From IMG/VR virus record IMGVR_UViG_3300035180_001680: a DNA stretch of 64,000 nucleotides. One strand, given 5' to 3'. Origin of the DNA: a virus (Duplodnaviria; Caudoviricetes). Below, piece by piece: positions 36,420-36,651 of the stretch. Under the pieces are notes generated by a model. The model had not been told where the DNA came from. It saw only the letters and a program-made list of their open reading frames with translations, and searched no databases. The position numbers were made by a program, and so were the translations under genes. Each line of letters starts with the position of its first letter. Within the stretch, counting starts at the first letter, position 1.

Positions 36420-36451
36420 AAAAAAGGGCGCTTTTTCGGAGCGCCCTTTTT
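36420..36451 (-). terminator. Intrinsic terminator of attenuator 3
   Basis: AAGGGCGCT-CCGAAAA-AGCGCCCTT followed by a T-run. Confidence 0.9.
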
Positions 36452-36469
36452 AGAATTTCTGGAAACTTT

Positions 36470-36568
36470 TTAGTTTTTCCAACCTTCCTCAAGAGCGCAC
36501 ACAGCCATCTCTGGGGCATGCCATGCCTCAGGGGTTGTAAACGCTGTAAAGAAAGTCGTAAAAATCAT
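36470..36568 (-). CDS. Leader peptide 3 (Phe/Thr/Ala/Pro/Glu/Trp/His/Met): MIFTTFFTAFTTPEAWHAPEMAVCALEEGWKN
   Basis: 32 codons, RBS GGAG; GCGCTCTT (36491-36498) pairs with terminator 5' arm AAGGGCGC. Confidence 0.9.
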   Translation of the reverse strand: MIFTTFFTAFTTPEAWHAPEMAVCALEEGWKN

Positions 36569-36622
36569 TTGTAAATCTCCATTAATTAAATTTATTGAGT
36601 ACTTTGCTCAACTGTTGATACA

Positions 36623-36651
36623 AGTATATATGACTTATTTATAAAAGTCAA
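36623..36651 (-). promoter_or_regulatory. tRNA-operon promoter 3
   Basis: TTGACT-TTTATAAATAAGTCATA-TATACT. Confidence 0.9.

Follow-up and report, generated by a model that had tools for sequence, protein, structure and literature searches.

A putative leader-peptide attenuator with sensor codons matching the phage tRNA array that it precedes

Introduction

Why would a phage place a promoter, a short open reading frame and an intrinsic terminator ahead of a tRNA array, and why would the codons of this reading frame be those that the array decodes? Known controls of tRNA genes act via promoter strength and growth rate. According to recent studies, phage tRNA arrays reportedly replace host tRNAs lost to shut-off or to anticodon nucleases; these studies ask why phages carry tRNAs, and to our knowledge no codon-matched array sensor has been described in them.

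The locus studied here, unit C, lies in a window of 64,000 nucleotides (the whole stretch of DNA analysed) that contains at least 38 tRNA genes, a large complement shared with the phages for which host tRNA replacement has been discussed. The window belongs to a 178.8-kb viral record that covers roughly half of a large phage, the portal of which is T4-type. Its nearest cultured relative is Xanthomonas phage XacN1 (50% portal identity), and DNA of the phage occurs in sediment and microbial-mat metagenomes, with no RNA run among those listed. Outside the window, the record carries a family B DNA polymerase gene (G000:C1:172689-176483, L055) with an intein that contains a LAGLIDADG domain. An earlier note, made from the letters of the window alone, had read unit C as an attenuator matched to the tRNA genes behind it.

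Results

Parts of unit C

The following features were identified:

36420 to 36651, minus strand: unit C as a whole, with promoter, Shine-Dalgarno sequence, 32-codon reading frame and terminator in the right order
36622 to 36651, minus strand: sigma-70-type promoter, a 30-mer with -35 TTGACT, a 17-bp spacer and -10 TATACT
36594 to 36612, minus strand: small 5' stem-loop of the MFE fold, directly 3' of the inferred transcription start
36577 to 36580, minus strand: Shine-Dalgarno sequence GGAG, 8 nt 5' of the leader ATG
36470 to 36568, minus strand: leader reading frame of 32 codons plus TAA stop, which stays open (32-35 codons) in three orthologues
36503 to 36562, minus strand: sensor run, codons 3-22, consisting solely of Phe, Thr, Ala, Pro, Glu, Trp, His and Met codons (codon-match tests)
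36473 to 36566, minus strand: 1:2 hairpin of codons 1-15 with codons 18-32, predicted for RNA without a ribosome, which sequesters region 2
36491 to 36498, minus strand: region 2 core GCGCUCUU, which covers codons 24-26 and provides the 5' strand in the predicted antiterminator (folds and duplex prediction)
36420 to 36451, minus strand: intrinsic terminator (regions 3 and 4) with a 12-bp stem, a 7-nt loop and a T-run
36370 to 36385, minus strand: rrn-boxA-like element TGTTCATTAACAATTT, located past the terminator and before the first tRNA
31177 to 36357, minus strand: tRNA array C, 13 clear tRNA genes and one with an anticodon-loop insert, interrupted by open reading frames

Unit C thus has a promoter, a ribosome-binding site and a short reading frame, clustered codons and an intervening terminator. 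The promoter hexamers and their spacer span 36651-36623 (minus strand), and the terminator stem (36451-36421) contains 6 G-C pairs among its 12 bp. The TAA of leader C is followed by 21 nt and then by the 5' arm of the terminator; the first tRNA gene, tRNA-Pro, starts at 36357, 63 bases past the terminator. As no promoter-like site was seen between the terminator and this gene, array C must be reached by read-through. The Shine-Dalgarno sequence and the ATG are kept in all orthologues of the unit. Small 5' stem-loops similar to that of unit C are also present in unit B and in units of a related lineage (G003, see below), and they may be functional.

The spacer of the promoter 30-mer (36622-36651 and three further copies) is as strictly conserved as the hexamers, and in the four window copies it contains an inverted repeat, TGACTT-N8-AAGTCA, which hints at a putative protein-binding site. 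This repeat is lost from some promoter copies of the G002 and G003 lineages. A non-coding spacer of 330 nt (36655-36986, minus strand) separates the upstream open reading frame from the unit C promoter and carries a promoter-like site of its own (36943-36915). It was considered as a structured RNA and rejected (fold z -1.6, no Rfam match). In G002, the upstream reading frame directly abuts the C-type promoter, without this spacer.

The sensor codons and array C

According to ARAGORN, array C comprises Pro(UGG), Pro(CGG), two Ala(UGC), Glu, Phe, Thr(UGU, CGU, GGU), His, Trp and Met tRNAs; a second Phe(GAA) gene at 35643-35717 was recovered as an Rfam tRNA match (32.6 bits). Both together agree with the list of tRNAs down to 31177 given in the earlier note. 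Its two statements about the leader hold as well: leader C uses all four Thr codons (ACG, ACT, ACA twice, ACC), and every residue from codon 3 to codon 22 belongs to the amino-acid set of array C.

The eight amino acids of the array account for a fraction of 0.33 of the residues in the long open reading frames of the phage. Against this background, an uninterrupted run of 20 such codons has a chance probability of ~2e-10, and the set accounts for 21 of the 24 residues that directly follow Met (P 5e-8). The match depends on the reading frame: for 10 units taken together, 78% of the codons are in-set in the frame of the leader and 31-33% in the other two. It extends to anticodons, with 17 of the 20 run codons readable by array C anticodons under strict wobble rules (background 0.29; P 2.6e-7); the remaining three (CCT, GCC, GCT) require expanded U34 wobble. 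Of 11 distinct array anticodons, 10 are sampled by the leader, the exception being Pro(CGG), which has no cognate codon there.

The Thr, His, Trp and Met tRNA genes lie 1.7-5 kb downstream behind open reading frames, and the match could therefore be partly inherited from an ancestral contiguous array. In a related phage (G002), the same genes, Pro to Thr(GGT), follow one another without interruption in a stretch of 1.4 kb, which makes the reading frames inside array C look like later insertions; the match to the distal tRNAs may thus partly descend from a contiguous ancestor like this one. Promoter-like sites within array C are no denser than in shuffled sequences, and a single transcript across the distal 5 kb to 31177 is putative.

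An HNH_3/NUMOD4 homing-endonuclease reading frame (32422-32787, minus strand) lies inside array C. Just downstream of the array follow a peptide-deformylase-like reading frame (30677-31105, minus strand) and then a possible radical-SAM (QueE-like) one (29555-30433, minus strand) with only a sub-threshold Pfam match (Fer4_12). Inserts of 28-42 nt in the anticodon loop were found in tRNA genes at 60036-60154 and 31259-31374 of the window and at 7556-7654 of locus L035 (all minus strand). One insert-bearing tRNA is Tyr(GUA), whose 33-nt insert is able to form its own hairpin; that of the G001 lineage can be read as Trp(CCA) when its insert of 28 nt is assumed to follow position 35. Group I introns were rejected as an explanation, the inserts being far too short (28-42 nt).

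Alternative folds of the leader RNA

Nascent RNA was folded up to the terminator loop (i.e., with the 3' arm not yet made), the ribosome footprint being removed. Without a ribosome, codons 1-15 of leader C pair with codons 18-32, and the 5' arm of the terminator is free. This 1:2 hairpin is strong in unit C (-36.1 kcal/mol, z -4.08, reached by none of 200 shuffles) and absent from the predicted folds of three orthologues and of the sister units. For a ribosomal A-site anywhere in codons 3-18, a duplex of GCGCUCUU and the AAGGGCGC segment of the terminator 5' arm is predicted, engaging 8 arm bases, and in these nascent folds the antiterminator structure has -21.3 kcal/mol versus -17.3 kcal/mol for the terminator hairpin. 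With the A-site at codon 21 or beyond, the pairing between region 2 and the arm is gone and the terminator can form. The 1:2, 2:3 and 3:4 pairings of unit C are mutually exclusive, and the position of the ribosome decides between them; the switch point lies at about the end of the matched codon run. Thus, an antiterminator that excludes the terminator in a ribosome-position-dependent way was found computationally.

The pairing of region 2 (36498-36491) with the terminator arm, already pointed out in the earlier note, was recovered as an 8-bp duplex with one G-U pair. Taken alone, this duplex has a z of -1.7 and is matched by 5.7% of shuffles; on its own it is not beyond chance and counts as weak evidence. 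When equilibrium folds were calculated with a masked ribosome, the terminator of unit C was favoured at every ribosome position, so that control must be kinetic, as is likewise true of trp; units A and D (see below) switch even under equilibrium folding. Furthermore, the stop codon of leader C, being 21 nt before the arm, places a terminating ribosome between regions 2 and 3, with the hairpin uncovered.

Four units of one design

The 30-mer promoter occurs four times in the whole 178.8-kb record, identical or with 1 mismatch and always at a tRNA array. Behind every copy stand a 31-33-codon leader, a terminator that differs between the units, a boxA-like site and finally the array. The three sister units of unit C are:

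17175 to 17394, minus strand: unit A, with promoter, leader (17329-17228) and terminator; array of Val, Asn and three Lys tRNAs
23016 to 23354, minus strand: unit B, with promoter, 5' UTR, leader (23167-23072) and terminator; array of Gln, Asp, Arg, Val, Ile and Ser tRNAs
60191 to 60401, minus strand: unit D, with promoter, leader (60336-60241) and terminator; array of Tyr, Cys, Leu, Gly, Ser, Lys and Ile tRNAs

Each leader has a run of its own. That of unit A consists of Asn, Val and Lys, and that of unit B of Arg, Gln, Ser, Ile, Val and Asp, which are exactly the amino acids of its array. The run of unit D comprises Gly, Leu, Tyr, Cys, Ser and Ile, and two codons past its end there is one for Lys; a single ATA codon in this unit matches tRNA-Ile(UAU), a weaker ARAGORN call, and both the codon and the tRNA were found in unit D of the window only. 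Among the 24 possible assignments of the four window leaders to the four arrays, the true one ranks first. In units A, B and D, the segment just past the run is complementary to the 5' arm of the unit's own terminator (z -3.8 to -6.2).

Unit B has a structured 5' UTR of 130 nt (23167-23354, minus strand), which is missing from the other units and from the G001 orthologue. Its leader ends with TAG (23072-23074, minus strand), although the phage encodes a tRNA(CUA); if this tRNA suppressed the TAG codon, ribosomes would be sent into terminator B. TAG recoding was considered as an explanation of the tRNA(CUA) and rejected, as reading TAG as sense lengthens open reading frames less than reading TGA or TAA as sense. 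TAG ends 9 of 117 long open reading frames, and no genome-wide sign of TAG recoding was seen.

Orthologous units in related phages

Relatives were found via a neighbouring gene and comprise the lineages G001, G002 and G003 as well as G004, a near-duplicate of one of them. Orthologous units with the same promoter class occur in these three other phage lineages; altogether, seven units in related phage contigs share the design, giving 11 units with the four of the window. The C-type leaders of the relatives are 42-67% identical to leader C, and substitutions among them stay within the amino-acid set of the array. Region 2 and the terminator arm change together, being GCGCUCUU/AAGGGCGC in the window, GCCCUUGG/CCAAGGGC in G002 and GGAGCCU/AGGCUUC in G003. 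Since indels misalign the pairing partners in a MAFFT alignment of the four C-type units, duplexes were predicted for each unit separately. In all 11 units, the duplex of region 2 with the arm outscores at least 94% of shuffles (z -1.7 to -6.2). The matched run ends 0-3 codons from the last stall position that permits the antiterminator; for units B and C, this position was taken from the nascent folds, because A/U pairs at the arm base inflate the automatic value. The stop codon lies 17-28 nt from the terminator arm in 10 of the 11 units.

Where a tRNA belongs to one array in one phage and to another array in another phage, the leaders shift in amino-acid content accordingly. In G003, codons for Asn and Met appear in the leader of array c, which contains tRNAs for both; AAG (once) and AAA (twice) appear in the leader of array a, which contains Lys(CUU) and Lys(UUU). 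In the window, most Lys tRNAs belong to array A, and leader A has AAA. Two exceptions were noted. Leader c of G003 has Arg codons and its array no Arg tRNA, and the Trp of the G001 leader is matched only if the tRNA with the 28-nt insert is read as Trp(CCA).

A leader-peptide profile search of viral contigs returned only G001 and G002, a search of metagenome contigs with the promoter pattern only G003-like contigs and unrelated DNA, and a distant blastn search against GenBank phages only a tRNA-Pro match. Leader-terminator units were not found in the tRNA region of XacN1, where promoters stand directly before tRNAs and small open reading frames upstream of tRNAs do not mirror these tRNAs. At G003:182098-182127 (L029), a diverged promoter copy with 3 mismatches is followed directly by a tRNA, leader and terminator being absent, which suggests that some tRNAs of these phages are ungated.

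A boxA-like site behind each terminator

Each of the four terminators of the window is followed by a single copy of the motif TGTTCWTTAAMAATTT, which is absent elsewhere from that strand. The boxA of E. coli rrnB, as quoted in PMC2176067, agrees with the window motif at 14 of 16 positions. As judged from the sequence, a boxA consensus would thus stand at the start of an untranslated operon in four of four arrays. Its location fits a polymerase that would be made processive only once it has been let through, and such a site would help a long, largely untranslated array transcript. In rrn-type antitermination (NusB/NusE-dependent), boxA likewise stands at the head of a long untranslated transcription unit; in contrast to rrn, the phage motif is placed after a regulated terminator, and Nus binding and an effect on Rho are putative.

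Discussion

How the unit may work

The attenuator reading of the earlier note fits the codon match, the ribosome-dependent folds, the sister units, the orthologues and the tracking of arrays by leaders. The anatomy, the frame-specific match, the alternative pairings and the conservation of the design are results of the analysis; the translation of leader C, the direction of control in vivo and the physiological trigger are inferred. Unit C is likely to be a ribosome-mediated (leader-peptide) attenuator that provides a demand-driven supply of phage tRNAs. Host RNA polymerase would start at the sigma-70-type promoter, with a ribosome translating the 32-codon leader close behind. If codons 3-22 are read without delay, the ribosome would pass region 2 and halt at the TAA, the terminator hairpin would form, and transcription would end before the tRNAs. 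Slow decoding of any of the Phe, Thr, Ala, Pro, Glu, Trp, His or Met codons would stall the ribosome within the run and leave region 2 free to pair with the emerging 5' arm of the terminator, whereupon the polymerase would continue via the boxA-like site into the tRNA genes. As the products decode the sensor codons, the loop would be self-limiting and act as a supply-on-demand controller of the tRNA set. Candidate triggers are a loss of host tRNAs through shut-off or anticodon nucleases and a codon demand of the phage that is mismatched to the host supply.

The more general proposition, that each phage tRNA array is on only when ribosomes read its own codons slowly, i.e. that the arrays are controlled by self-referential sensors, seems to us somewhat better than an even bet. 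If true, it would mean isoacceptor-resolved tRNA homeostasis and, in effect, a means of sensing that host tRNAs are depleted, also where anticodon-nuclease defences are the cause; this would perhaps be a widespread way of regulating tRNA genes that is not known to have been described. With a codon-matched attenuator, one would understand how large phages can afford dozens of tRNA genes without overproduction, and tRNA arrays would be tied both to host shut-off and to defences that cleave tRNAs. As a compact natural part, such an attenuator would also report for each codon whether the tRNA pool of the cell suffices. As promoter and boxA look compatible with E. coli, the idea is directly testable by reporters.

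Alternative explanations

The same hardware could respond to amino-acid starvation (i.e., to uncharged tRNA) rather than to tRNA abundance, which would couple tRNA synthesis to amino-acid supply in place of a self-correcting tRNA loop. Ribosome speed reports the aminoacyl-tRNA ternary complex, so that sequence alone cannot separate charging from abundance, and for the multivalent ilv and thr leaders a response to starvation is established. However, extra tRNA does not relieve starvation, and tracking the content of the array would then have no evident benefit; the sampling of nearly every anticodon, including the rare ATA together with Ile(UAU), points to isoacceptor supply instead. We regard starvation as an unlikely signal.

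Less probable still, and indeed doubtful, is a stand-alone small gene for a micropeptide or an sRNA, with the array reached by constitutive leak-through or with a functional peptide. The strong terminator lets one expect a discrete transcript of ~195 nt in any case, and trans functions of a leader transcript, rnTrpL, and of its peptide, peTrpL, are known (PMC6614838, PMC7298713). Such a gene would hardly account for four unrelated peptides, each mirroring its own array, for orthologue substitutions that keep membership in the array set rather than residue identity, or for a region 2 that follows the terminator of each unit. That the match is a chance or compositional coincidence, and that the terminator merely ends an upstream transcript, can be regarded as extremely improbable. 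The weakness of the 2:3 duplex of unit C taken alone agrees with coincidence, as do the Rfam leader families (His_leader, Thr_leader, Trp_leader and others), none of which reached its gathering threshold in the window or matched unit C; the only matches, those of His_leader and Thr_leader to sister units A and B, were sub-threshold (29.8 and 27.1 bits, E 0.7-0.8) and are at chance level. Against coincidence stand the run probability given above, the frame specificity, the replication of the design in 11 units and the survival of the match after re-annotation of the tRNAs; against the end of an upstream transcript stands the promoter 200 nt upstream of the terminator, with the leader alone in between.

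Relation to known attenuators

The proposed mechanism of unit C is classical leader-peptide attenuation; by analogy, it appears closest to ilv and thr, with a four-region logic like that of trp. The leaders of ilvGMEDA, ilvBN and thr also combine a short translated leader and clustered codons for several amino acids with a terminator and a competing antiterminator, and stalling at any sensed codon leads to read-through, as predicted for unit C. Whereas these leaders control biosynthetic enzymes, the phage unit targets tRNAs and would sense eight amino acids, with codons that mostly occur once or a few times each and sample nearly all array anticodons; it shares neither sequence nor an Rfam family with them.

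With trpL of E. coli, unit C shares a four-region logic of predicted 1:2, 2:3 and 3:4 pairings, a predicted super-attenuation if the leader is untranslated, and an antiterminator weaker than the terminator, hence kinetic control. In contrast to trpL, where the terminating ribosome rests on region 2, that of unit C would be located between this region and region 3, and among the phage units the 1:2 hairpin is predicted for unit C only. The pheST operon with its pheM leader and the T-box resemble the phage unit in controlling a component of decoding by the state of the cognate tRNA. However, pheM controls a synthetase and senses one amino acid, the T-box binds uncharged tRNA directly without a ribosome, and neither controls tRNA genes. 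The T-box model had no match in the window at E values up to 1.

The novelty lies in what is regulated and in how: the putative sensor codons are read by the very tRNAs whose genes would be under control. In the full-text literature, a body that largely excludes subscription journals, we found neither leader-peptide control of tRNA genes nor a report of tRNA genes under a sensor of their own decoding capacity.

Several tRNA genes of the window stand without a leader or an attenuator, namely those for Ser (46451-46538), Gly (52454-52530), the suppressor-type tRNA(CUA) (50908-50981) and a weaker tRNA-Met call (50658-50733). The latter two are located near a full-length GOLLD RNA (49463-49908, minus strand; 198.8 bits), which adjoins the tRNA(CUA) gene.
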